Source: Escherichia phage PH1061
Strand: one strand, 5' to 3'
Sequence record: OQ680138.1
Length of the DNA stretch: 39,968 nucleotides
In this document: positions 1-39,968 of the stretch, in pieces
Layout of the letters: each line of letters opens with the position of its first letter
How positions within the stretch are numbered: position 1 is the first letter of the stretch
Translations under genes and position numbers: made by a program
The notes under the pieces: generated by a model
The model's database searches: none
What the model saw: the letters and a program-made list of their open reading frames with translations, nothing else
What the model was told of the DNA's origin: nothing

Positions 1-111
1 ACTCATGGTGACTTCAGTCATCTTCACGCTAACCCACTGATATGCAAGTAATTCTGACTTAACTATCACTATAGGACTCAAGGTCTAAGACTCCAAGTGA
101 AAGACCAAAGA
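1..111. repeat. Window-end overlap: 1..111 is identical to 39858..39968 (circular-permutation or assembly wrap); includes the 3' end of the last early ORF (1..51) and a phage promoter
   Basis: Direct comparison of the first and last lines of the window: actcatggtgacttcag...caagtgaaagaccaaaga is present at both ends. Confidence 0.95.
57..79 (+). promoter_or_regulatory. Phage RNAP promoter, consensus TTAACTATCACTATAGGA, +1 G near 74, upstream of the RNAP gene
   Basis: Matches the 11-copy consensus in the unique genome; duplicate of 39914..39936. Confidence 0.7.
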
Positions 112-26876: not shown

Positions 26877-27326
26877 ATGAAGAACGGGACAGCCAGTGAG
26901 AGACTGGCAGAACTGTCAGTAACCGAAGAGTCTGGCTGTATCCGCTTCACCGGAAGCATTGAGAAGTCCGGTTATGGAAGGATAATGATTAATAGGGTAA
27001 AATATGGAGCGCATAGACTTGCTTACGAGCTTGCTAATGGTCCTATACCCGATGGGTACGTTGTTCGCCATAAATGCGACAACCCGTCCTGTATAAACCC
27101 AAGCCACCTTGAAGTTGGCACACAAGCTGACAACATAAAGGATAAGGTGACTAGAGGTCGCCAAGCATCAGGATGCTCCATAGGAGTATCTAAGCTCACT
27201 GAGGAAATTGTGAGAGACATAAGGTCCAGCGACCTAAAGGTTTCACTCTTGGCGGAACGATATGGAGTGAGTACGGTTTCTATTAGAAATATATTGAGGA
27301 GAAAGACATGGCAACACGTGGTGTAA
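26877..27326 (+). CDS. HNH homing endonuclease (family B), 149 aa, inserted between genes 15 and 16
   Basis: Motif RHKCDNPSCINPSHLEVGTQADN; paralog of 8049..8420; lower GC. Confidence 0.8.
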   Translation: MKNGTASERLAELSVTEESGCIRFTGSIEKSGYGRIMINRVKYGAHRLAYELANGPIPDGYVVRHKCDNPSCINPSHLEVGTQADNIKDKVTRGRQASGCSIGVSKLTEEIVRDIRSSDLKVSLLAERYGVSTVSIRNILRRKTWQHVV

Positions 27327-30300
27327 GGAACGCAAATCCGGGCAATATCCGTAAGTCAAAAGACCAGTGGGAAGGTGCTATAGGCGATGATGGTGCATTC
27401 GTTATCTTCGACAGTCCTGAATCTGGGGTCCGAGCATTAGCGAAAAACCTTCAAAGCTACGGTCGCCAAGGTTATGACTCCATCGAGAAGATTATCAACC
27501 GTTGGGCACCTCCGAACGAGAACGACACTCAGTCCTACATCGACTCGGTTGTATCTGCGACTGGTATTCCTGCAACTCAAAGTCTCGACCTATCGGACCC
27601 TGACACCCTGTCTTCTCTGGCTCAAGCTATCAGCTTCCATGAGACAGGCTCCCGGTACGACCCTGAAGTCTATCAGAAGGGAGTCGCACGAGCACTCAAT
27701 GGCATTAGCCCAAAGACTCCACCAGTAAGCGCTAACGTATTTGACGCACTCACGGAAGGACTCAAGGCTAAACCTAAAGTAGCTCTGGGCGAGAACCTTC
27801 CGACCGCTGCTGGTCTAAACATTGAGGGTCAAACACCTGAAGCTCCCAACGAATCGTTCGGGGAGATGTTCTATAAAGCTACTGGGGAGACCATGCAGGA
27901 ACGAGAGGACCGCTCTACGTGGTTCGGTTTTGGTGCTGCTACAGAAGCTGAAGTGAAGAACTCTATGGTCGGCGTGGCTATCCGCGCTGGTCAGACCGAG
28001 GACTCACTTGATGTCATTGGCGATGTGTTTAACCCTACCAGATGGAACAACCATAAGTGGACTCGCGAGGAGCTGGACCAGATTCGTAACGCGGGGGTTC
28101 TGCCTCAGTATTACGGAGTCATTACTGGTGGCTCTCCTCAGAACCTGACCGAGCTTATTAACTTGGCGCTTGAGAACCAGAAGTTGGACCAAGAGAAGGC
28201 CAAGGCTGGGACTGGCGCTCAGTTAGCTGCTGGTGTTATTGGTGCTGGTGTAGACCCTCTGACATACGTTCCTATTGCTGGACAGGTTGGTAAGGGCGCT
28301 AAGCTGGTTAATAAGATGTTCACCGTGGCTGCTCAATCTGGGGCACTGGTTGGTGTGTCTGAGATGGCCCGTACATCAGTGGCTGGTGGTGATGCTCATG
28401 TGGCTGAGGCTATCCTTGGTGGTGCTCTCTTCGGTGGTGGTATGACTGCTATCGCTGATGGCTTAGGCAGAGCCTTAGGTCGTAACACTAACGAGTTCGC
28501 TGGCCCAGCTACACGTCTGGAAGCCCGTGAGACTGCACGTAATGTTGATGGTCAGGACCTGTCTCGTCTACCTATTCAGGAAGGTGAGCAGACCTTTAGT
28601 CATCAAGGTGTTAAGTTCGCAGACGTTCCGAACGAGCCGGGTAGTGTACGACTGGAAGATGGTTCAATCCTGATTGGTGAGAACCCTCTGAACCCTAAGA
28701 CACGTCAAGTCTTTGACGAAGTGATTGAGCCAGAACGTGCCGCTGCTGGTGTGAACCTTGGTGGACTTACCGAGATTGGCCTGAAGCTGCTTCGGTCTGA
28801 GAACCCTGAGATTCGTGGAGTAGCTGCTGACTTAGTGCGTTCACCGACTGGTATGCAGTCTGGGGCCTCAGGTAAAATCGGGACCACTGCATCTGACGTA
28901 TTCGAGAGACTTCGTGCTGTAGACCATCGGTTCTACAACGACATCGACGATGCTGTTACTGAGGCACTCAAGGACCCTTACTTCCAGACAGCATTCTGGC
29001 GAGATAACTCAGCTCTGCGTGAGGATGTTTATAAGCGTTCGGCTTTGGCTATTGAGGATGGTAGCGGGAACCTGAAGGCTGAACTTACTCCGGGGGAACT
29101 GAAAGTCTATGACCTGCTGAAGAACCAGTTTGATGCAAAGCGCGAGATGATGGAGAACCCAGCGATGTTCGGTCGTACAGACGCTCAGTCTATCTTTCCT
29201 GGTAGTAGATTCAAGGGGACCTACGTTCCTGTAGTCTATAGTTCTCAGATGAAGCAGCTTTATATCAAGGAGCTTGGAAGCCCAGAGTCATTACAGGAGG
29301 CAATCAAGAAGTCATGGCTGACAAGCTATGTGTCAAGACCTGAAGTCAAGGCGCGAGTGGACGAGATGTTAGCAGAGCAGTTACGGGCGTCTCAGCCAGC
29401 AGCAGGTAAGACTGTGGGTACTACACCTAATCATCGTTCTTCTGTAGAAGCAGCCCGTGACCAGATGAAACTAGATGATGCCGCTACACAGGCAAGTGAT
29501 AAGGTAGCGGAACTAAAAGATGTCCTGACCAACGCTGAGAAGAGAGTTGCAGACCGTGAAAAGAAACTCCAGAACTCCAAGGACAGACTGGCTTCGCATG
29601 AAGCTAAGCTGAAGGAGTTGGAAGAAAAACTAGCTGCTAAACCTAAGAGCAAGACCATTCCTGTTAAGATTGAGAGTCGGAAGCAGATGATTGAGACCCA
29701 GAAGTCTCACGTCCGTATTAACACCGAGCGTCTCGACTACATGAAAGGACAGGCTGATAAGGTTCGAGATAGAATCACCAAAGCAACAACTGAAGCTGAA
29801 GCTGCTGTGGCATCTGCCAAAGGGCAGAAGTCTTCTGTAGATGGTCAGGCCACTACTGCTGGTGAAACTACATCTGGTAACGCATCTCAAGCAGCACCAG
29901 AGGTGACTATGGATATGGTAGAGAAGTATGCTAATGATAAGGCTTATGGTGTCTCCCATACAGAGCAGTTTGAGCGTTCATCCGTAATGGAAGAAAACAT
30001 CAACGGTCTGGTTGGTCTGGAGAACAATAACTTCCTTGAGGCTCGAAACCTGTTCGATAACGACATGGAAATCACCTTGCCAAATGGTAAGCCGTTCAGC
30101 GTAAATAGTCTACGTGAGTGGGATATGGACAAGATTGTCCCGGCCTACAACCGTCGAGTTAATGGTGACATTGCTATCATGGCTGGTACAGGAAAGACCA
30201 CGAAGGACATGAAGTACTTGGTTGAGACCATGATGAACAAGGCTGGTGATGACGGCAAGTTGAAAGGTGAGGTCTCGACCTTACGTGACACCTTGAAGAT

Positions 30301-31696
30301 TCTCACTGGTCGTGCTCGACGTGATGGTGCTGACGATGCTGCCTTCGCTACCGTGATGCGTACAATGACAGACCTATCGTTCTTCTCTAAGAATGCCTAC
30401 ATGGGTGTTCAGAACTTAACGGAGATTGGTGGTATGCTATCTCGTGGTAACGTTCGTGCATTGCTACATGGAGTCCCTATATTCCGTGACCTAGCCTTCC
30501 GTAACAAGAAGGTAGGGGCCTCAGAGATTAAGGACCTGCACAACGTTATCTTCGGTAAGGAACTGGATGACTCAATCCGTCCGTCTAAACAGGATGTCAT
30601 TGACCGTCTTCGAGCGTACAGTGCCTTGAGTAAACCATCGGCTACAGCTCTTGGGACTGCCAAGTATTACACTGGTGAACTTGCAGTACGCTCTCCGTTC
30701 ACTAAAGTCCTCAACGGTACGACCAACTACCTGTTAGACGCTGGACGTCAAGGCTTCCTGTCTGACATCGTGGAGCATAGTCTGACTGGTAGTAAGCGTA
30801 AGTTCGATGACCGCTGGCTGAAGACCTCTGGTATCTCTGACGAGCAGTGGAAGGGTATTAAGTCCCTAATCCGTGAGTCAGTGACTCGTGGTCCAGACGG
30901 GAAGTATACCATCAAGGATAAGAAGGCGTTCAGTCAGGACCCAAGGGCTATGGACCTGTGGCGTATGGGTGACACCATCGCTGACGAAACGTTACTCCGG
31001 CCCCACAAGCTGTCAAACATGGACGCCAAGGCTTATGGTCCTCTCGCTAAGACTGTCCTTCAGTTTAAGAACTTCGTCATCAAGTCCATCAATGGGCGTA
31101 CCATGCGAACCTTTTATAACGCCACGAAGAACAACCGAGCGATGGATGCTGCTCTGTCCACTGTGATGTCTATGGGTCTTGCTGGTATATACTACATGGC
31201 GCAGGCACACATCAAGGCTTACGCTATGCAGGATGGTCGTGACCGTGACTACCTCAAGCAAGCTCTGGACCCGACGATGATCGGATATGCGGCTCTGTCC
31301 CGTAGTTCACATCTCGGTGGACCACTTGGGGTAGCTAACATTCTGGGTGGTATCGCTGGGTACGAGGACACTAAGATGCTCCGTTCGTCTATCCTACCTC
31401 GGTCGCCTACAGAGAAGCCTGAACGTGCCATCGCGTATGGTGCAGCTACAAGTGACCCTGTGATGAATATTGTTGGCAACTTCTTGGAGCAGGTTCCAGC
31501 TTTCGGATATGCTGCTAACGTCGGCGCTTCGGCTTACAACTTGGCTGGTTACCTCAAGGCTGATACTCGTGTCAACGAGCGTGACTACATGACCGGGATG
31601 TATAATACGTTCCGTGAACTGGTTCCGAACGACCCCATTACCCAGAAGCTGTTGCTTGGAACGTTTGAGGAGCAAGGTATCCACATCAAGGACTAA
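27308..31696 (+). CDS. 16: Internal virion protein D (gp16-like), 1462 aa, with divergent N-terminal domain and an internal coiled-coil insertion
   Basis: Long colinear blocks with T7 gp16 from STWFGFGAATEAE... to the C-terminus (for example RSPTGMQSGASGKIG, NGDIAIMAGTGKTTK, LLDAGRQG). Confidence 0.93.
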   Translation: MATRGVRNANPGNIRKSKDQWEGAIGDDGAFVIFDSPESGVRALAKNLQSYGRQGYDSIEKIINRWAPPNENDTQSYIDSVVSATGIPATQSLDLSDPDTLSSLAQAISFHETGSRYDPEVYQKGVARALNGISPKTPPVSANVFDALTEGLKAKPKVALGENLPTAAGLNIEGQTPEAPNESFGEMFYKATGETMQEREDRSTWFGFGAATEAEVKNSMVGVAIRAGQTEDSLDVIGDVFNPTRWNNHKWTREELDQIRNAGVLPQYYGVITGGSPQNLTELINLALENQKLDQEKAKAGTGAQLAAGVIGAGVDPLTYVPIAGQVGKGAKLVNKMFTVAAQSGALVGVSEMARTSVAGGDAHVAEAILGGALFGGGMTAIADGLGRALGRNTNEFAGPATRLEARETARNVDGQDLSRLPIQEGEQTFSHQGVKFADVPNEPGSVRLEDGSILIGENPLNPKTRQVFDEVIEPERAAAGVNLGGLTEIGLKLLRSENPEIRGVAADLVRSPTGMQSGASGKIGTTASDVFERLRAVDHRFYNDIDDAVTEALKDPYFQTAFWRDNSALREDVYKRSALAIEDGSGNLKAELTPGELKVYDLLKNQFDAKREMMENPAMFGRTDAQSIFPGSRFKGTYVPVVYSSQMKQLYIKELGSPESLQEAIKKSWLTSYVSRPEVKARVDEMLAEQLRASQPAAGKTVGTTPNHRSSVEAARDQMKLDDAATQASDKVAELKDVLTNAEKRVADREKKLQNSKDRLASHEAKLKELEEKLAAKPKSKTIPVKIESRKQMIETQKSHVRINTERLDYMKGQADKVRDRITKATTEAEAAVASAKGQKSSVDGQATTAGETTSGNASQAAPEVTMDMVEKYANDKAYGVSHTEQFERSSVMEENINGLVGLENNNFLEARNLFDNDMEITLPNGKPFSVNSLREWDMDKIVPAYNRRVNGDIAIMAGTGKTTKDMKYLVETMMNKAGDDGKLKGEVSTLRDTLKILTGRARRDGADDAAFATVMRTMTDLSFFSKNAYMGVQNLTEIGGMLSRGNVRALLHGVPIFRDLAFRNKKVGASEIKDLHNVIFGKELDDSIRPSKQDVIDRLRAYSALSKPSATALGTAKYYTGELAVRSPFTKVLNGTTNYLLDAGRQGFLSDIVEHSLTGSKRKFDDRWLKTSGISDEQWKGIKSLIRESVTRGPDGKYTIKDKKAFSQDPRAMDLWRMGDTIADETLLRPHKLSNMDAKAYGPLAKTVLQFKNFVIKSINGRTMRTFYNATKNNRAMDAALSTVMSMGLAGIYYMAQAHIKAYAMQDGRDRDYLKQALDPTMIGYAALSRSSHLGGPLGVANILGGIAGYEDTKMLRSSILPRSPTEKPERAIAYGAATSDPVMNIVGNFLEQVPAFGYAANVGASAYNLAGYLKADTRVNERDYMTGMYNTFRELVPNDPITQKLLLGTFEEQGIHIKD

Positions 31697-31760: not shown

Positions 31761-33881
31761 ATGTCCACTATTACACAATTCCCTTCAGGCAACACTCAGT
31801 ACAGGATTGAGTTCGACTACCTAGCCAGAACGTTTGTTGTTGTTACGCTGGTGAATAGCTCTAACCCTACCCTGAACCGTGTACTGGAAGTTGGTCGAGA
31901 TTACCGATTCCTTAATCCAACGATGATTGAGATGTTGGTTGACCAATCAGGTTTCGACATCGTTCGTATTCACCGTCAGACTGGAACTGACTTAGTAGTA
32001 GACTTCAGGAATGGCTCAGTGTTGACAGCTAGTGACCTGACCAATGCAGAGCTTCAGGCTATCCATATTGCAGAAGAAGGTCGAGACCAAACTGTTGACT
32101 TAGCGAAGGAATATGCCGATGCTGCTGGTAGCTCTGCTGGCAACGCTAAGGATAGCGAGGACGAAGCACGACGAATCGCTGCGACTATCAAGGCAGCTAG
32201 TCTAGTTGGTTATATTACCCGTCGCTCCTTCGAGAAAGGCTTCAACGTTACAACATGGAACGAGGCCCTGCTATGGGAAGAGGATGGCGATTATTACCGC
32301 TGGGATGGTACGCTTCCAAAGAACGTTCCTGCTGGCTCAACTCCTGAAACGTCTGGTGGCATTGGGTTAGGAGCGTGGGTTAGTGTCGGCGATGCTACAT
32401 TGCGCAATCAAATATCTGACCCTGACGGTGCCACTAAGTACCCAGCGTTACAAATTGCGCGTTGGCGTGATGAAGGAGATGTGCGCGGTTGGGGTACTGG
32501 CGAAGAAGGTTTTAACGCCGCGATGTCTGAGTTGTCAGCTAATGGGGGTGGCACACTATTCGTTAATGAGGATATACTCTTTACATCCCTTCCTATTATG
32601 CACAAAGAGCATGTAACTGTGCGATGGAACGCTGTAGCTAAAGTTAAGTCAGGCTTGACTGCTGAATATGCTTATATAATGGATGGTGGAGCAGATACTC
32701 CTGCATACAACAGTTCCCATCACTTTACTAAAGCTAACAAAACAAATTGCTATAACCTCTTCTTAGTAGCAGAGGATTATACAACAGGTATTTCTGCTAA
32801 AGGTGTTTGTGTGCGCCATTGCTACGAATGGACTTACGAAGGGGGGGCAATTATCGGGTTTAATAATGGAGGTTTCTACGAGACTAACAACTACGAAGGA
32901 AAAGCCAGCAAATTCACGATGGTTGTAGCTAATACAAGACTTGATAATTCTGTAGGATTTGAAAGTAATTCAACTGACAGTTGGTTTAGTGAACTTTCTC
33001 CAGTTGGTTATTCAATTGGTCTAAAGTTTAATAAGAGCGCAAATGTGGTTGATAAGGCACACCCCTGGGGTAATACAGTTAACAATCTTGTAGGCGCAAT
33101 GGGGCAGATGAATGTTGGTATTGTAATTACAGAGAACGCAGGTTTTTCTACATATTCAAATATTATTCTTGATACTCCGGTAAGGAAGAACACCAATAAG
33201 ACACCATCTAGAAGCAATGGTGGGGTTGGTGTAATTTGTGATGCATGGGACTGCGTTCTTGATGGTATTCTTGTATTACCGTCCAGACATGACACAGTAG
33301 CAAAAAGTACCTTACCAATGATCACCACTATGCAAAGATCAACAATAAAAGATTTTCAGGTTTCGGGGGAGCAGTATGTAACAGACATATGGATTTCATT
33401 TGAAAACAATTCAGGGATAGCCAGGAATCACGTTTCAGGTTATGGGTATGCTGAAAAAATGCGTACAGGAATGACCTTTGGACCCAATTCAGGGGCTGTT
33501 CTTGCAAGTGCTGATGGTGTAACGATGTCGAGCCAAACTCTGACCTCTGGAATATGGTATAACACATTAAGTTTTTCCATAGCTACAACAATAACAGCTA
33601 TACCGTCAGCAACAGGTGATGTAATTGTTAATATAACTCCTGCTTATGGCGTTAAATCTGGATTCGGTGGTACAGTTAAGGGTGGCATGTACGCATTTTA
33701 CTACGCCACAGCAAACTCAGCCAAACAATTATATGATGTTTCCTTAGAGGTAGTGTCAGATAATACCGCTAAGTTCTTATTGACATTCATAGATGGAACT
33801 ACTCGGTACGCACACTGGACAGATGTATCTAACGGTTCAGCAAGAGCCATAAGTATATCAGGAGTCATTAATATAAAATAA
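31761..33881 (+). CDS. 17: Tail fiber/tailspike, 706 aa: T7 gp17-like N-terminal adaptor domain fused to a non-T7, AT-rich C-terminal receptor-binding module
   Basis: N-terminal FDYLARTFVVVTLVN...DYRF...LQAIHIAEEGRD matches the T7 gp17 N-terminus; downstream part has no T7 similarity and a clear GC drop from about 32560. Confidence 0.9.
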   Translation: MSTITQFPSGNTQYRIEFDYLARTFVVVTLVNSSNPTLNRVLEVGRDYRFLNPTMIEMLVDQSGFDIVRIHRQTGTDLVVDFRNGSVLTASDLTNAELQAIHIAEEGRDQTVDLAKEYADAAGSSAGNAKDSEDEARRIAATIKAASLVGYITRRSFEKGFNVTTWNEALLWEEDGDYYRWDGTLPKNVPAGSTPETSGGIGLGAWVSVGDATLRNQISDPDGATKYPALQIARWRDEGDVRGWGTGEEGFNAAMSELSANGGGTLFVNEDILFTSLPIMHKEHVTVRWNAVAKVKSGLTAEYAYIMDGGADTPAYNSSHHFTKANKTNCYNLFLVAEDYTTGISAKGVCVRHCYEWTYEGGAIIGFNNGGFYETNNYEGKASKFTMVVANTRLDNSVGFESNSTDSWFSELSPVGYSIGLKFNKSANVVDKAHPWGNTVNNLVGAMGQMNVGIVITENAGFSTYSNIILDTPVRKNTNKTPSRSNGGVGVICDAWDCVLDGILVLPSRHDTVAKSTLPMITTMQRSTIKDFQVSGEQYVTDIWISFENNSGIARNHVSGYGYAEKMRTGMTFGPNSGAVLASADGVTMSSQTLTSGIWYNTLSFSIATTITAIPSATGDVIVNITPAYGVKSGFGGTVKGGMYAFYYATANSAKQLYDVSLEVVSDNTAKFLLTFIDGTTRYAHWTDVSNGSARAISISGVINIK

Positions 33882-33915
33882 CCCAGCCTTGAGGTTGTTG
33901 GCCTGATTTCTGGCG

Positions 33916-34143
33916 TTGGTGCTAAAACCCATCAAATATCAAGGCTCTGATGGTTCCCATCTCTTTATGCTGACTACTGATGACGGAACTGTTAAAGATG
34001 TTAACGTGGTTACGACCTTACTGCTCCCTCTGGTACATTGGATTCCTGAACCGGGTAGAGGACCGAAGGTTGTGGAGGTAGAGGCTAACTACACGTTGAC
34101 TAACGTATGGCAACAACTTTGGGTCACGGACGACCCGATTTAA
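33916..34143 (+). CDS. Possible hypothetical protein, 75 aa, between tail fiber and holin
   Basis: Open frame with GTG start and no convincing RBS; fills a 275-bp gap that is short in T7. Confidence 0.3.
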   Translation: MVLKPIKYQGSDGSHLFMLTTDDGTVKDVNVVTTLLLPLVHWIPEPGRGPKVVEVEANYTLTNVWQQLWVTDDPI

Positions 34144-36930: not shown

Positions 36931-36979
36931 TAACTATAGGTGAAAGCTGCATGAATACGCAGTTAGTAACCTATAGTTA
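36931..36979. repeat. Perfect 11-bp inverted repeat TAACTATAGGT / ACCTATAGTTA with 27-nt spacer, immediately after the terminase gene
   Basis: Read from sequence; arms contain the promoter-core-like TATAGG on both strands. Confidence 0.8.
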
Positions 36980-37015
36980 CTACCAGTCTAACCTACTGTT
37001 TTACAAAGAGTTTGG

Positions 37016-37038
37016 ACTTAACTATCACTATAGGGAAG
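37016..37038 (+). promoter_or_regulatory. Phage RNAP promoter (phiOR-like), CTTAACTATCACTATAGGGAAGA
   Basis: Consensus match; lies between genes 19 and 19.5 as phiOR does in T7. Confidence 0.85.
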
Positions 37039-37217
37039 ACCCCCGGTTACTTATAGTATTACTGTAGTGAATATACATATGCAGACTTTATGCAAGACCT
37101 TAGGAGGCAGACTCCGAGTTCTTACCTAAGGCTTGCACCGATGGAAGGAGGTGATATTAATCATAATACCTCCAATACAGATAGTCACCGACCATAGATA
37201 CAGGAGGTATGTAGCAT

Positions 37218-37376
37218 ATGGCAAAGACCAAAGCTGTACTTAAAGCTCTGGCGACCAATCGAGCTACATACAGGTTTCTTGCTGCTGTTCTACTTGCTGC
37301 TGGCGTTACTGCTGGAAGTCAGTGGGTCGGGTGGGTCGAGACTCTCGTATGTTCTCTGGTCTCTCAGTGTAATTAA
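37218..37376 (+). CDS. Small hydrophobic protein, 52 aa (gene 19.5 position)
   Basis: Strong RBS AGGAGGT before ATG; predicted TM segment; below track cutoff. Confidence 0.6.
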   Translation: MAKTKAVLKALATNRATYRFLAAVLLAAGVTAGSQWVGWVETLVCSLVSQCN

Positions 37377-37437
37377 CGCAATCATGGTAACGATTCATGA
37401 AAGGAGGTAGTATGATCGGTTATGGCGAAGGCTGAAG

Positions 37438-37581
37438 ACCTAAGGTCAGTTCATAGCTGACGCTACTCTACTGACCTTAGCTACTGTAGTCAAGGACCTA
37501 AAGTAACACTATAGCAGTCCATGGTCTATCCCAAGGTCTCTGACCTACGGTATTGCCTACAGTAGCAGGGACTCCTAAGGA
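37438..37581. repeat. Array of degenerate heptamers (CCTAAGG, CCTAAAG, CCTACGG, CCTACAG) preceding the predicted right terminal repeat
   Basis: Read from sequence; analogous to T7 CCTAAAG short-repeat arrays flanking the terminal repeat. Confidence 0.6.
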
Positions 37582-37618
37582 GGGACGATGAGTTTTGGAC
37601 CAAAAGTTTGAGACCACA

Positions 37619-37825
37619 TCTCACAGTTCAAGAACCTCAAGTCTCCCCATAGGCCCTCTTTAAGTCCAGACCAAAGGCCCTACCCCAGTCTATCATAAGG
37701 TTAGACCGATGGTCAAGACTTCAGGTCAACGATAGGTCTAGGCTATGGCTGGAGGTCAGGACGATAGGTTGGGACTATGGGTCTTCTTTGAGTCTCTATC
37801 TGTATAGTGTTATAGTATAACATTA
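37619..37825. repeat. Predicted genome left end and terminal-repeat region (collapsed to one copy); begins TCTCACAGTT...
   Basis: TCTCACAG...CCCCATAGG... resembles the T7 left terminus (TCTCACAGTGTACGG...CCCCCATAGGGGG); exact repeat length not determinable from a single copy. Confidence 0.55.
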
Positions 37826-37828
37826 CGT

Positions 37829-37930
37829 CCTACAGCCTACAGTCTCACTAACCTACAGTATCAACCATAAGACACCAACACCTACAGTCATAGACCTACA
37901 GTTAATAGACACAAGGCTATAGACTTACGG
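37829..37930. repeat. Array of at least 5 CCTACAG heptamers plus a CTTACGG variant following the predicted terminal repeat
   Basis: Read from sequence. Confidence 0.7.
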
Positions 37931-38013
37931 TCAAAGACATGTTAGTCAAAGACTATATCCTCTTACACCATGAGGCCGACGATAGCTTAATCAATATTAT
38001 TTAAGATTACCTA

Positions 38014-38043
38014 TTGACTACAGGTCTAGACTATGGCTTAATA
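38014..38043 (+). promoter_or_regulatory. Host sigma70-type early promoter (A1-like): -35 TTGACT, about 17-18 bp spacer, -10 CTTAAT/TTAATA
   Basis: Read from sequence; position as T7 A1. Confidence 0.5.
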
Positions 38044-38154
38044 GCTTCCGTCAACACGACACGGCACCAACCGGATAGTGAAGACGCCGGGTCATCCCGG
38101 TTAAGTAGACAGCCTGATAAGTCATACGAACAACAGGCAGATGACAGAAAGTAG

Positions 38155-38184
38155 TTGACAAGCAGTAACGACTTAACGTAGTAT
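38155..38184 (+). promoter_or_regulatory. Host sigma70-type early promoter (A2-like): -35 TTGACA, 18-bp spacer, -10 TAGTAT
   Basis: Upstream block GGATAGTGAAGACGCCGGG...AGTAGACAGCCTGATAAGTC resembles the T7 A1-A2 region (CAACCGGATAAGTAGACAGCCTGATAAGTCG). Confidence 0.6.
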
Positions 38185-38205
38185 GCACCACATCAAGTCG
38201 TTACG

Positions 38206-38232
38206 ATTGATAAGCAGACAGAAAGTGTTAGC
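38206..38232 (+). promoter_or_regulatory. Possible third early promoter (A3-like), -35 TTGATA with suboptimal -10
   Basis: TTGATAAGCAGACAGAAAG resembles the T7 A3 -35 context; -10 unclear. Confidence 0.3.
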
Positions 38233-38333
38233 TTCCGGAGTTTGAAGTATAAGCGCCCGGGTGTTGTAACGGGTCTGCGCCGCTCTTTAACAATCTGGAT
38301 AAACTCTTAATGTGCGCCGATAGCGACTAACTA

Positions 38334-39582: not shown

Positions 39583-39908
39583 TGAGTAAATCTTATGGCA
39601 TCAACTTGGTCCATGCATTTGACGCAGACCTTAATCTGCTTTCAGCACTAGCTACAGGCTACCGTCACGGGACCTCAAGTCACACCATTCGTCAACAGCA
39701 GGAGCGTGACCGTGTACTACAGGCACGACTACGGGCCGAGGGACATAAGGCCGAGCTGATGTGTCTGGCGTATGGTGGACGACCAATCACCGACGATGGT
39801 AAACTTCTGGTCTCAGGCTGGAAGGCGATAGACCAACGGTCAACCATCAAGCACACGACTCATGGTGACTTCAGTCATCTTCACGCTAACCCACTGATAT
39901 GCAAGTAA
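39582..39908 (+). CDS. Hypothetical early protein, 108 aa, at the position of T7 gene 0.7; no protein-kinase motifs
   Basis: TAATG coupling with the previous ORF; the 3' end is duplicated at window positions 1..51. Confidence 0.6.
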   Translation: MSKSYGINLVHAFDADLNLLSALATGYRHGTSSHTIRQQQERDRVLQARLRAEGHKAELMCLAYGGRPITDDGKLLVSGWKAIDQRSTIKHTTHGDFSHLHANPLICK

Positions 39909-39913
39909 TTCTG

Positions 39914-39936
39914 ACTTAACTATCACTATAGGACTC
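39914..39936 (+). promoter_or_regulatory. Phage RNAP promoter upstream of the RNAP gene (same element as 57..79)
   Basis: TTAACTATCACTATAGGA. Confidence 0.7.
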
Positions 39937-39968
39937 AAGGTCTAAGACTCCAAGTGAAAGACCAAAGA

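Follow-up and report, generated by a model that had tools for sequence, protein, structure and literature searches.

The window, that is, the whole stretch of 39,968 nt analysed here, belongs to a Kayfunavirus, a K1F-like podophage of the T7 family, in which a single tailspike is encoded. In the ORF list the gene is found at the gene-17 position and codes for 706 amino acids followed by a stop codon (Table 1). Its neighbours are gp16 (27308..31696) on one side and the holin, gp18, Rz and terminase genes on the other, in an order like that of phages K1F and pO91. The gene is a two-part chimera, with an anchor typical of the lineage (aa 1–246) followed by a foreign, self-contained and presumably receptor-binding module (aa 247–706).

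Table 1 Features of the tailspike gene, in window coordinates
Feature	Position	Strand	Basis
Tailspike gene, gene-17 position	31761..33881	+	ORF list; synteny with K1F and pO91
T7 gp17-type tail-attachment domain, aa 10–116	31788..32108	+	Pfam PF03906
Tail_spike_N (TSP1/Gp66-type) domain, aa 149–211	32205..32393	+	Pfam PF18668
Hinge and putative 5' crossover zone, aa 223–246 (PDGATKYPALQIARWRDEGDVRGWG)	32427..32498	+	Homology breakpoints, base-level alignment
Imported low-GC module, part 1: N-cap helix and right-handed parallel beta-helix, aa 247–568	32499..33464	+	
Best-conserved beta-helix core, aa 378–496; candidate substrate groove/active site	32892..33248	+	Alignments
Imported module, part 2: C-terminal beta-sandwich domain, aa 569–706	33465..33878	+	
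Putative 3' crossover: stop codon and first bases beyond	33879..33894	+	Homology limits

The N-terminal similarity to T7 gp17, already proposed in the sequence-only reading, was recovered by Pfam (Phage_T7_tail, E 4e-16, 59.5 bits against a gathering cut-off of 25.2), and the N-terminus of T7 gp17 in the PDB (7boz/8dsp) aligns with aa 6–116. The extent of ~150 aa given there was too short, as the conserved part comprises ~246 aa and also includes Tail_spike_N (E 1.3e-19, 70.4 bits against a cut-off of 25) and the hinge. Among the PDB sequences, CBA120 TSP1/3/4 and G7C-type chains match aa 145–229, and the Kayfunavirus tailspike 9vvr_A aligns almost identically over aa 1–261 (~95% by eye). The 9vvr entry contains 18 chains, which by analogy is consistent with six trimers. 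The window tailspike is likewise expected to form trimers, and the anchor would fix them onto the tail as in T7 and K1F.

Nucleotides 1–735 of the gene are common to ~160 Kayfunavirus records at 90–95% identity (about 92%). The K1F gp17 endosialidase (endoNF), at the same gene position and with the same anchor, is 92% identical over this part. Past aa 246 the K1F-type tailspikes are unrelated to the one described here. No similarity to the endoNF catalytic region was found there in either DNA or protein, the sialidase beta-propeller is missing and Pfam detected no C-terminal chaperone domain. Among the ~160 records only pO91 also has the remainder of the gene. Its tail protein (OR204650, WMM35656.1), from the same genus, has the same 706-aa architecture and the same 5' junction, with an anchor 98–99% identical at the nucleotide level and a module that is 86% identical in amino acids but represents a different mosaic allele. 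The two backbones are 92–96% identical, and pO91 lacks the 166-nt segment (33882–34047) found 3' of the stop codon in the window.

The composition changes abruptly within the gene. The stretch from 32560 to the stop codon, earlier described as AT-rich and unlike the remaining genome, has indeed a GC content of 0.396 versus 0.497 for the whole window, the lowest of all its 1322-nt stretches (mean 0.497, sd 0.024; next lowest 0.44), and the maximum likelihood change point within the gene falls at 32557. The sliding-window and codon-usage check suggested at the time gave a GC3 of 0.315 for aa 247–706 versus 0.546±0.043 in the 24 other ORFs (z = -5.4), and uniform GC across the gene is ruled out. 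With the codon usage of the backbone the same protein would have a GC of 0.487, compared with the 0.403 observed, and amino-acid composition accounts for only about one of the ten GC points lost. The foreign part is also somewhat smaller than had been thought (~460 instead of ~550 aa). Its richness in Gly, Asn and Thr was borne out and extends to Ser (10.2, 7.8, 9.6 and 9.3%, respectively, versus 7.9, 4.2, 5.5 and 6.4%). The short repeats described with it were not, since Tandem Repeats Finder detected no DNA tandem repeats beneath them and the periodicity is purely structural, that of beta-helix rungs.

A native origin of this stretch, reflecting amino-acid composition or local selection on the ancestral gene, would be in line with a module in which Asn, Thr, Ser and Ile are enriched while Arg, Asp and Glu are scarce, a bias that lowers GC slightly. 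However, this explanation is refuted by the codon-usage expectation and the GC3 deviation just given, by a 93% identical copy of the same DNA in a myovirus and by its absence from the ~160 Kayfunaviruses that share the anchor, and retains practically no probability. The last two observations also support the horizontal acquisition postulated from the sequence. The myovirus is the Phapecoctavirus ECO340P1 (151 kb), where the gene ECO340P1_00114, annotated as hypothetical protein, has a module with the same GC and 93.3% nucleotide and 95% amino acid identity across its full length. In place of the T7-type anchor (241 aa in that comparison) it has an unrelated N-terminus of 71 aa, and it sits in a myovirus tail gene cluster that also holds a further gene with a tail spike protein annotation. 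The GC of the module is ~0.40 in every carrier, close to the 0.393 of the flanks in ECO340P1. The codon usage of the module (RSCU) correlates at 0.54 with ECO340P1 genes and at 0.61 with Kuttervirus tailspike genes, versus -0.08 with the window backbone and 0.28 with P22-like structural genes. Composition and codon usage fit best the large, low-GC myoviruses that carry multiple tailspikes.

The junctions could be located within narrow limits. At the 5' side, K1F-type homology stops at 32498, while ECO340P1-type homology begins at 32427 and prophage-type homology at 32469. The hinge peptide is kept behind all anchor types, and its DNA is found at 72–80% identity in the tailspike genes of 12 phages, with genomes from ~38–43 kb up to 74 and 149 kb. 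At the 3' side, homology to ECO340P1 terminates exactly at 33881, and intergenic sequence of the T7-like backbone type follows from ~33894. From these alignments, the 5' crossover lies in the hinge and the 3' one at the stop codon, and the module probably entered there by recombination from a pool of modules of about 40% GC common to unrelated phages. Apart from a weak stem of 5 bp at 33949, no convincing intrinsic terminator was found at the 3' junction. The downstream 'motif three' terminator of Pas et al. 2023 (PMC10408124) was thus not detected at the window tailspike.

The module is also shared among phage families that are otherwise unrelated. In a search of 1.84 billion proteins it was always C-terminal (24 of 24 representative clusters), behind N-terminal parts of 34–467 aa. 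Amino acid identity to the window version was 71% in Kuttervirus LPST94 and 68.5% in a Hafnia myovirus. Versions with only Tail_spike_N in front occur on contigs of 44–48 kb, and further anchor types exist. In E. coli prophages the module follows a P22 head-binding domain (PF09008), beside gtr/acyltransferase seroconversion genes and with int at argW. Among 5426 complete E. coli genomes only three have the module, and draft E. coli genomes also contain prophage versions, 606 aa in length, in dozens of clusters (P0016–P0113). Of the three prophages in complete genomes, two have O-antigen-modifying genes (gtrABC, acyltransferase) adjoining the tailspike. An O91 strain holds the only P22-like prophage that is intact, and the one of strain 30COLEC is a remnant made of tailspike, gtrABC and int.

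The module itself was matched by structure only. Pfam gave no match in aa 246–706, PHROGs matches were confined to the anchor part, and phmmer and profile searches of the PDB sequences matched anchors and nothing in the module. The single-chain structure prediction is a right-handed beta-helix of moderate confidence (pLDDT 71.6) followed by a C-terminal beta-sandwich, and both parts are structurally closest to the Det7 gp208 tailspike ('Dettilon', PDB 6f7k/6f7d) of a Salmonella phage, at 9–13% identity and with no detectable sequence homology. The beta-helix tailspike expected from the sequence was in this way recovered by prediction and by Foldseek, in which all the top matches were tailspikes (Det7 gp208, CBA120 TSP2, HK620, P22 and Sf6). 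Beta-helix polysaccharide enzymes are also structural neighbours. In contrast, T7 gp17 (7boz, 553 aa) aligns only with aa 6–116, and the C-terminal part of the window protein is modelled as beta-helix. The tailspike has no homologue of the coiled-coil shaft and C-terminal tip domain of T7 gp17, which places it outside the class of non-enzymatic T7 fibres.

Det7 gp208 cleaves a Salmonella O-antigen, and the tailspikes of P22, HK620 and Sf6, the O-antigen endoglycosidases of Lederbergvirus, cleave theirs. They share the fold class with the module and presumably the working mode, although their receptor-binding parts have no sequence similarity to it and sequence does not allow their catalytic residues to be aligned with it. 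By analogy with them, the module probably also depolymerises its polysaccharide. The residues Y378, E379, R393, D406, H434-P-W-G-N-T439, D471, R475, R484-x-N-G487, D494 and W496 of the core are invariant or nearly so down to 26–30% identity, and none of the alleles compared lacks any of them. This conservation makes the region a candidate active site, in whose putative groove cleavage might involve D406, D471, D494 and E379 together with H434, R475, R484, W436 and W496. Cleaving the O-antigen would let the virion work its way down to the outer membrane, as tailspikes of the P22, HK620 and Det7 type do.

The beta-helix could also act as an adhesin that recognises the O-antigen without cleaving it, with penetration by reversible binding alone. 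By sequence the module matches none of the curated glycosidase or lyase families, its catalytic residues are candidates only, and the pO91 homologue is stable enough to probe whole cells in fluorescence and ELISA formats, which would fit weak or absent cleavage. Active tailspikes such as that of P22 are used as probes as well, however, and the closest structural relatives are cleaving tailspikes and polysaccharide enzymes. Furthermore, three Asp (D406, D471 and D494) and the His, Arg and Trp residues are invariant down to 26–30% identity, two Glu (E379 and E548) are nearly so, and this conservation is concentrated in aa 378–496. We consider binding without cleavage unlikely. The O91 O-antigen is an unusual one that includes glucuronic acid amidated with glycine. 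The module might be a lyase or another non-hydrolytic enzyme, acting by beta-elimination at the 4-linked glucuronic acid derivative of O91, and not a glycoside hydrolase. The top Foldseek matches are nevertheless tailspikes, those of familiar chemistry among them being glycosidases. Glycosidases, too, typically have invariant Asp residues and the fold does not separate the chemistries, and a lyase seems quite unlikely.

As to the receptor, the module most likely recognises the O91 O-antigen of E. coli and would for that reason set the host range; for the window allele we infer this specificity from its relatives. The probable target is thus an O-antigen, unlike the K1 capsule recognised by K1F. 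The 'ORF43' protein of pO91 is reported to be an O91-specific probe with no cross-reaction with other O-antigens (PMC11891642, PMC11758799). This 'ORF43' of Chen et al. 2023 (Anal Chem 95:18407) is presumably the tailspike, an identity that we only infer because in the GenBank record of pO91 the tailspike is the 42nd CDS, the 43rd coding for a holin of 64 aa. Of the three complete E. coli genomes with the module on a prophage, two are O91, versus a background of 27 in 5426, an excess with a chance of ~7e-5 (binomial). The prophage tailspikes of these two genomes are 81–83% identical in amino acids to the window allele over the full module. By the threshold that Pas et al. 2023 (PMC10408124) set for an RBP subtype, an identity of 30% or more across 60% or more of the RBD, the window allele falls in the O91-associated subtype with both prophage tailspikes and with pO91. 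In that study no Lederberg- or Uetakevirus prophage RBP was found for serogroup O91, unlike here, where two O91 genomes carry a prophage RBP with the module.

Among the O91-associated alleles themselves the differences amount to 15–17%, and the window allele, being 81–86% identical to them, stands at or just beyond their range. Its specificity could differ from that of pO91 and be directed to another O-antigen (e.g. O21 or a Shigella type) or to a capsule. The first 100 and the last 50 residues of the module represent alleles that separated long ago, with only 70–74% identity to pO91 in aa 251–350, 86% in aa 651–700 and synonymous sites near saturation. At the DNA level identity falls to 60–70% at 32517–32786; an alignment artefact was discarded here by codon-aware realignment, which gave a real and ancient allelic divergence. 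The central core (aa 351–600) is nevertheless 80–96% identical with all invariant residues kept, and the distance between two O91-associated alleles of independent origin (83–85% identity) equals that from them to the window allele. The closest allele comes from ECO340P1, a phage isolated on Shigella flexneri, but one or more further genes in its locus have a tail spike protein annotation, so that the isolation host says little about the module. The third carrier, 30COLEC, is genotypically O21. It retains only the prophage remnant, whereas the host of the intact one is O91, and O21 was dropped as the main reading. K1F, finally, has the same anchor on a capsule-specific enzyme. Altogether a specificity other than O91 is distinctly unlikely.

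Overall, the gene is a chimera of anchor and module, and we consider it probable, with good confidence, that the low-GC module was acquired at the hinge and the stop codon and recognises O91, which it probably also cleaves. The interpretation put forward in the sequence-only reading is supported. A more elaborate scenario can be offered only tentatively. In it, the module would belong to a small uncharacterised family of enzymes that depolymerises O91 with a catalytic set of its own (D406, D471, D494 and E379 with H434, R475 and R484), possibly by a non-hydrolytic chemistry, and T7-like phages would repeatedly re-sample its alleles at the hinge from a reservoir of low-GC, multi-tailspike myoviruses. 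The nearly identical anchors and differently mosaic modules of the window phage and pO91 would then represent at least two separate exchanges.

The shift in composition, the crossover at the hinge and the spread over phage families are all as expected from the established models of how tailspike modules are exchanged, such as that of modular RBP exchange put forward for E. coli O-antigen-specific phages by Pas et al. 2023 (PMC10408124). In this sense the locus is a clear but ordinary example of the swapping of host-range modules in phages, a textbook case that brings no surprise.

O91 is one of the main non-O157 serogroups of Shiga-toxin-producing E. coli. The module is well delimited and of practical use, because the 5' junction lies within a few codons, the 3' one is at the stop codon and several anchors are found in front of it. 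As a portable part recognising O91, it would fill the O91 gap in the published catalogue of serogroup-specific tailspikes and may find use in diagnostics or in the retargeting of phages or tailocins.

The tailspike gene of PH1061 occupies the gene-17 position in the gene order and has a strongly uneven composition. A sequence-only reading had described DNA that becomes AT-rich from about 32560 to the stop codon, unlike the remaining genome, and the GC and codon usage comparison that it proposed bore this out. GC is 0.396 over 32560-33881 versus 0.497 for the window, the window minimum for that length (standard deviation 0.024; next lowest 0.44), and the best GC change point inside the gene lies at 32557. 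GC3 of aa 247-706, the module, was 0.315 against 0.546±0.043 for 24 other ORFs (z = -5.4). Backbone codon usage applied to the module protein gave an expected GC of 0.487 versus the observed 0.403, therefore the low GC reflects mostly codon usage and not protein composition. The short Gly/Asn/Thr repeats also proposed were recovered only as enrichment (in Gly, Asn, Thr and Ser), since a search for sequence repeats in the module found none.

The part preceding the module is conserved over more than the N-terminal ~150 aa that had been matched to T7 gp17. The T7-type domain is there, and T7 gp17 in the PDB matches aa 6-116 only, but the 843-aa Kayfunavirus-type tailspike 9vvr_A is nearly identical over aa 1-261. 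Nucleotides 1-735 of the gene are common to ~160 phage records at 90-95% identity, among which only a close Kayfunavirus relative, pO91 (OR204650; tailspike WMM35656.1), shares the remainder. From these matches and the Pfam domains, the conserved part is therefore an anchor of ~246 aa made of two domains plus a hinge (aa 223-246). Pfam detected no domain beyond aa 211 of the 706-aa protein, and a sub-threshold LEA_4 match falls within the anchor.

Features of the PH1061 tailspike region and backbone, and module genes of two other phages
Feature	Sequence	Position	Strand	Details
Tailspike ORF	PH1061	31761..33881	+	706 aa; between gp16 and holin, gp18, Rz, terminase genes
Phage_T7_tail	PH1061 tailspike	aa 10-116		Pfam
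Tail_spike_N	PH1061 tailspike	aa 149-211		Pfam PF18668
166-nt segment	PH1061	33882..34047		between tailspike stop codon and holin
Putative ORF	PH1061	33916..34143	+	75 aa; TTG start; overlaps 166-nt segment
HNH_3 homing endonuclease	PH1061	26877..27326	+	149 aa; Pfam E 1.9e-17; inserted between gp15 and gp16
gp16	PH1061	27308..31696		1462 aa (1295 aa in K1F and pO91)
gp16 extra segment	PH1061	~29405..29882		~480-550 nt; Lys/Glu/Ala-rich, coiled-coil-like; strong positive AT skew
ECO340P1_00114	ECO340P1 locus L001	8836..10446
LPST94_00131	LPST94 locus L010	5110..7383

Both junctions of the module could be located. Homology to K1F stops at 32498, while that to ECO340P1 spans 32427-33881 (93.3%) and that to the E. 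coli prophages 32469-33880 (82%). The overlap zone (32427-32498, 72 nt) codes for PDGATKYPALQIARWRDEGDVRGWG, a hinge peptide kept behind every anchor type, and hinge DNA was found at 72-80% identity in the tailspike genes of 12 phages with genomes from ~38-43 kb to 74 and 149 kb. PH1061 and pO91 are essentially identical up to ~32497 (98% over 32400-32510) and divergent beyond, and in the base-level alignment ECO340P1 is nearly identical to the window starting at ~32500. On the 3' side, homology to ECO340P1 ends exactly at the tailspike stop codon, and backbone homology restarts at 34048 (pO91) or 34053 (K1F). The DNA at 33894-34052 is of backbone type, intergenic and common to Salmonella T7-like phages. 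The 3' end of pO91 differs from that of PH1061 by lacking the 166-nt segment, also absent from K1F. Salmonella T7-like phages (vB_STmST19_KE14 and others) have this segment at 87-88% identity, at times annotated as a hypothetical protein; Pfam gave no match for the putative 75-aa ORF overlapping it.

A protein search with aa 246-706 matched 140 proteins, with 66-97% identity and at least 81% of the query covered among the 120 listed. In 706-aa proteins the module follows a T7-tail plus Tail_spike_N anchor, and in those of 618-626 aa just Tail_spike_N (one such protein is on a 48-kb contig of siphovirus-type gene content). E. coli prophages have it behind PF09008, the head-binding domain of P22, in 606-aa proteins, and further N-termini are unannotated. 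Carriers among sequenced phages are the 151-kb Phapecoctavirus ECO340P1 (95% aa identity), pO91 (86% aa), the Kuttervirus LPST94 (71%), which carries it in gene three of its four tail spike/fibre genes, a myovirus of Hafnia (68.5%) and, at 27%, an Aeromonas phage. When 1.84 billion representative proteins were searched exhaustively, just 24 clusters had the module, in every one C-terminal behind N-terminal parts of 34-467 aa. The module is constant in length (465-466 aa). ECO340P1_00114 and LPST94_00131, annotated just as 'hypothetical protein', can now be called tailspikes of the O91-associated module family.

The AT-rich mosaic is thus confirmed, and its reading as a foreign receptor-binding module acquired horizontally is supported by the 93.3% match to ECO340P1 and by the ~160 anchor-sharing records that, pO91 excepted, lack it. 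The module has ~40% GC in all carriers (window 0.402, pO91 0.419, prophage 0.404, ECO340P1 0.406), and only the ECO340P1 genome matches this value (flanks 0.393), the T7-like backbone being at 0.50 and the P22-like prophage flank at 0.49. RSCU correlation with the module was 0.61 for Kuttervirus tailspike genes and 0.54 for ECO340P1 genes, versus 0.28 for P22-like structural genes and -0.08 for the window backbone. GC and RSCU suggest, short of proof, a long residence in low-GC multi-tailspike myoviruses. Identity to ECO340P1 is even along the module (91-98% nt) and that to pO91 is patchy: it is 70-74% in aa 251-350 (64-65% nt, and 37-43% for conserved-codon third positions, near saturation), 93-97% nt in aa 451-600 and 77% nt in aa 651-700. 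The anchors of both phages are 98-99% identical, and therefore they carry different mosaic alleles behind one anchor, which implies a minimum of one additional exchange at that hinge. A sibling from a metagenome (P0001, 97% aa) shows collinearity with the window over gene 17 and the intergenic region.

The beta-helix tailspike fold anticipated from the sequence was recovered in an AF2 model of aa 229-706 (alignment of 27 sequences, pLDDT 71.6). Its best Foldseek match was Det7 gp208 (E 3e-8), followed among the top matches by CBA120 TSP2, HK620, 9NA, the Klebsiella K2-2 tailspike, P22 and Sf6. Pfam found no domain of any kind in aa 246-706, therefore the protein lacks the K1F-type C-terminal chaperone domain. 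In alignments down to 26-30% identity (protein numbering is alignment position + 228), Y378, R393, D406, H434, W436, G437, N438, D471, R475, R484, N486, G487, D494 and W496 are invariant, concentrated in aa 378-496, and E379 and E548 nearly so. Those checked (E379, D406, H434, D471, R484 and E548) are present in 7/7 alleles. This acidic, basic and aromatic set resembles a carbohydrate-cleaving groove and is a candidate active site.

According to two reviews (PMC11891642, PMC11758799), E. coli O91 is detected by recombinant 'pO91-ORF43', which does not cross-react with other O-antigens. In GenBank, pO91 has its 706-aa protein as CDS 42 and a holin as CDS 43, so that we only infer 'pO91-ORF43' to be the tailspike. 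The primary work on this protein is that of Chen et al. 2023. Independently, the module turned up in just 3 of the 5426 complete E. coli genomes. In two of them, MB06231 and GPEC1292, wzx and wzy are of the O91 family; O91 wzy is found in 27 of the 5426, and by our own arithmetic the chance of O91 in two of three carriers is ~7e-5, for strains that may not be independent, all three having the prophage at argW. The P22-like prophage of MB06231 is seemingly complete and that of GPEC1292 partly degraded, with an acyltransferase adjoining the tailspike. In the third, 30COLEC (NZ_CP070930.1), the O-antigen cluster is of the O21 family and its wzx is frameshifted. At argW this strain keeps a prophage remnant of the O91-associated type with tailspike, gtrABC and int (intS) only, and it shares an identical GndA protein with MB06231, an O91 strain; this would fit an O-antigen switch that followed lysogeny. 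The O91-associated alleles share 83-85% identity with one another and 81-86% with the window allele.

PH1061 is a Kayfunavirus (K1F-like, T7 family) with a complete, circularly permuted genome. Bases 1..111 equal bases 39858..39968, a circular-assembly overlap, and therefore the window represents a whole genome in permuted form, ~39,857 bp long; comparison with pO91 places its physical ends near 37,800. The second-lowest GC stretch (0.44, 36931..38252) is located around these presumed ends, downstream of the terminase gene. Backbone identity is 94-95% to phages ZH4 and ST31 and 92-96% to pO91. The backbone also matches (94-95%, 17.7 kb) 'Enterococcus phage EFA-1' (MT350292.1, host Enterococcus faecalis) and 'Providencia phage EPr2' (OM256482.1); with a Gram-positive host for a coliphage-type Kayfunavirus, the former record looks mislabelled or contaminated. 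Unlike PH1061, pO91 has no HNH_3 endonuclease at the gp15/gp16 site, where there is a 43-nt gap. The gp16 extra segment is also absent from the metagenomic sibling contig, and ZH4 may share it because its match spans the entire query (100%).

Earlier work (PMC10408124) had established the conserved anchor, the swappable receptor-binding domain, hinge motifs and cross-morphotype transfer, and a close relative, pO91, is already published, with its RBP put to use. Beyond the 2023 survey, in which no O91 prophage tailspikes were found (PMC10408124), such tailspikes are now added. The window itself contributes a second O91-type module allele in a Kayfunavirus, precise junctions, evidence of recombination within the module, and a link to the unannotated 'hypothetical proteins' of ECO340P1 and LPST94.
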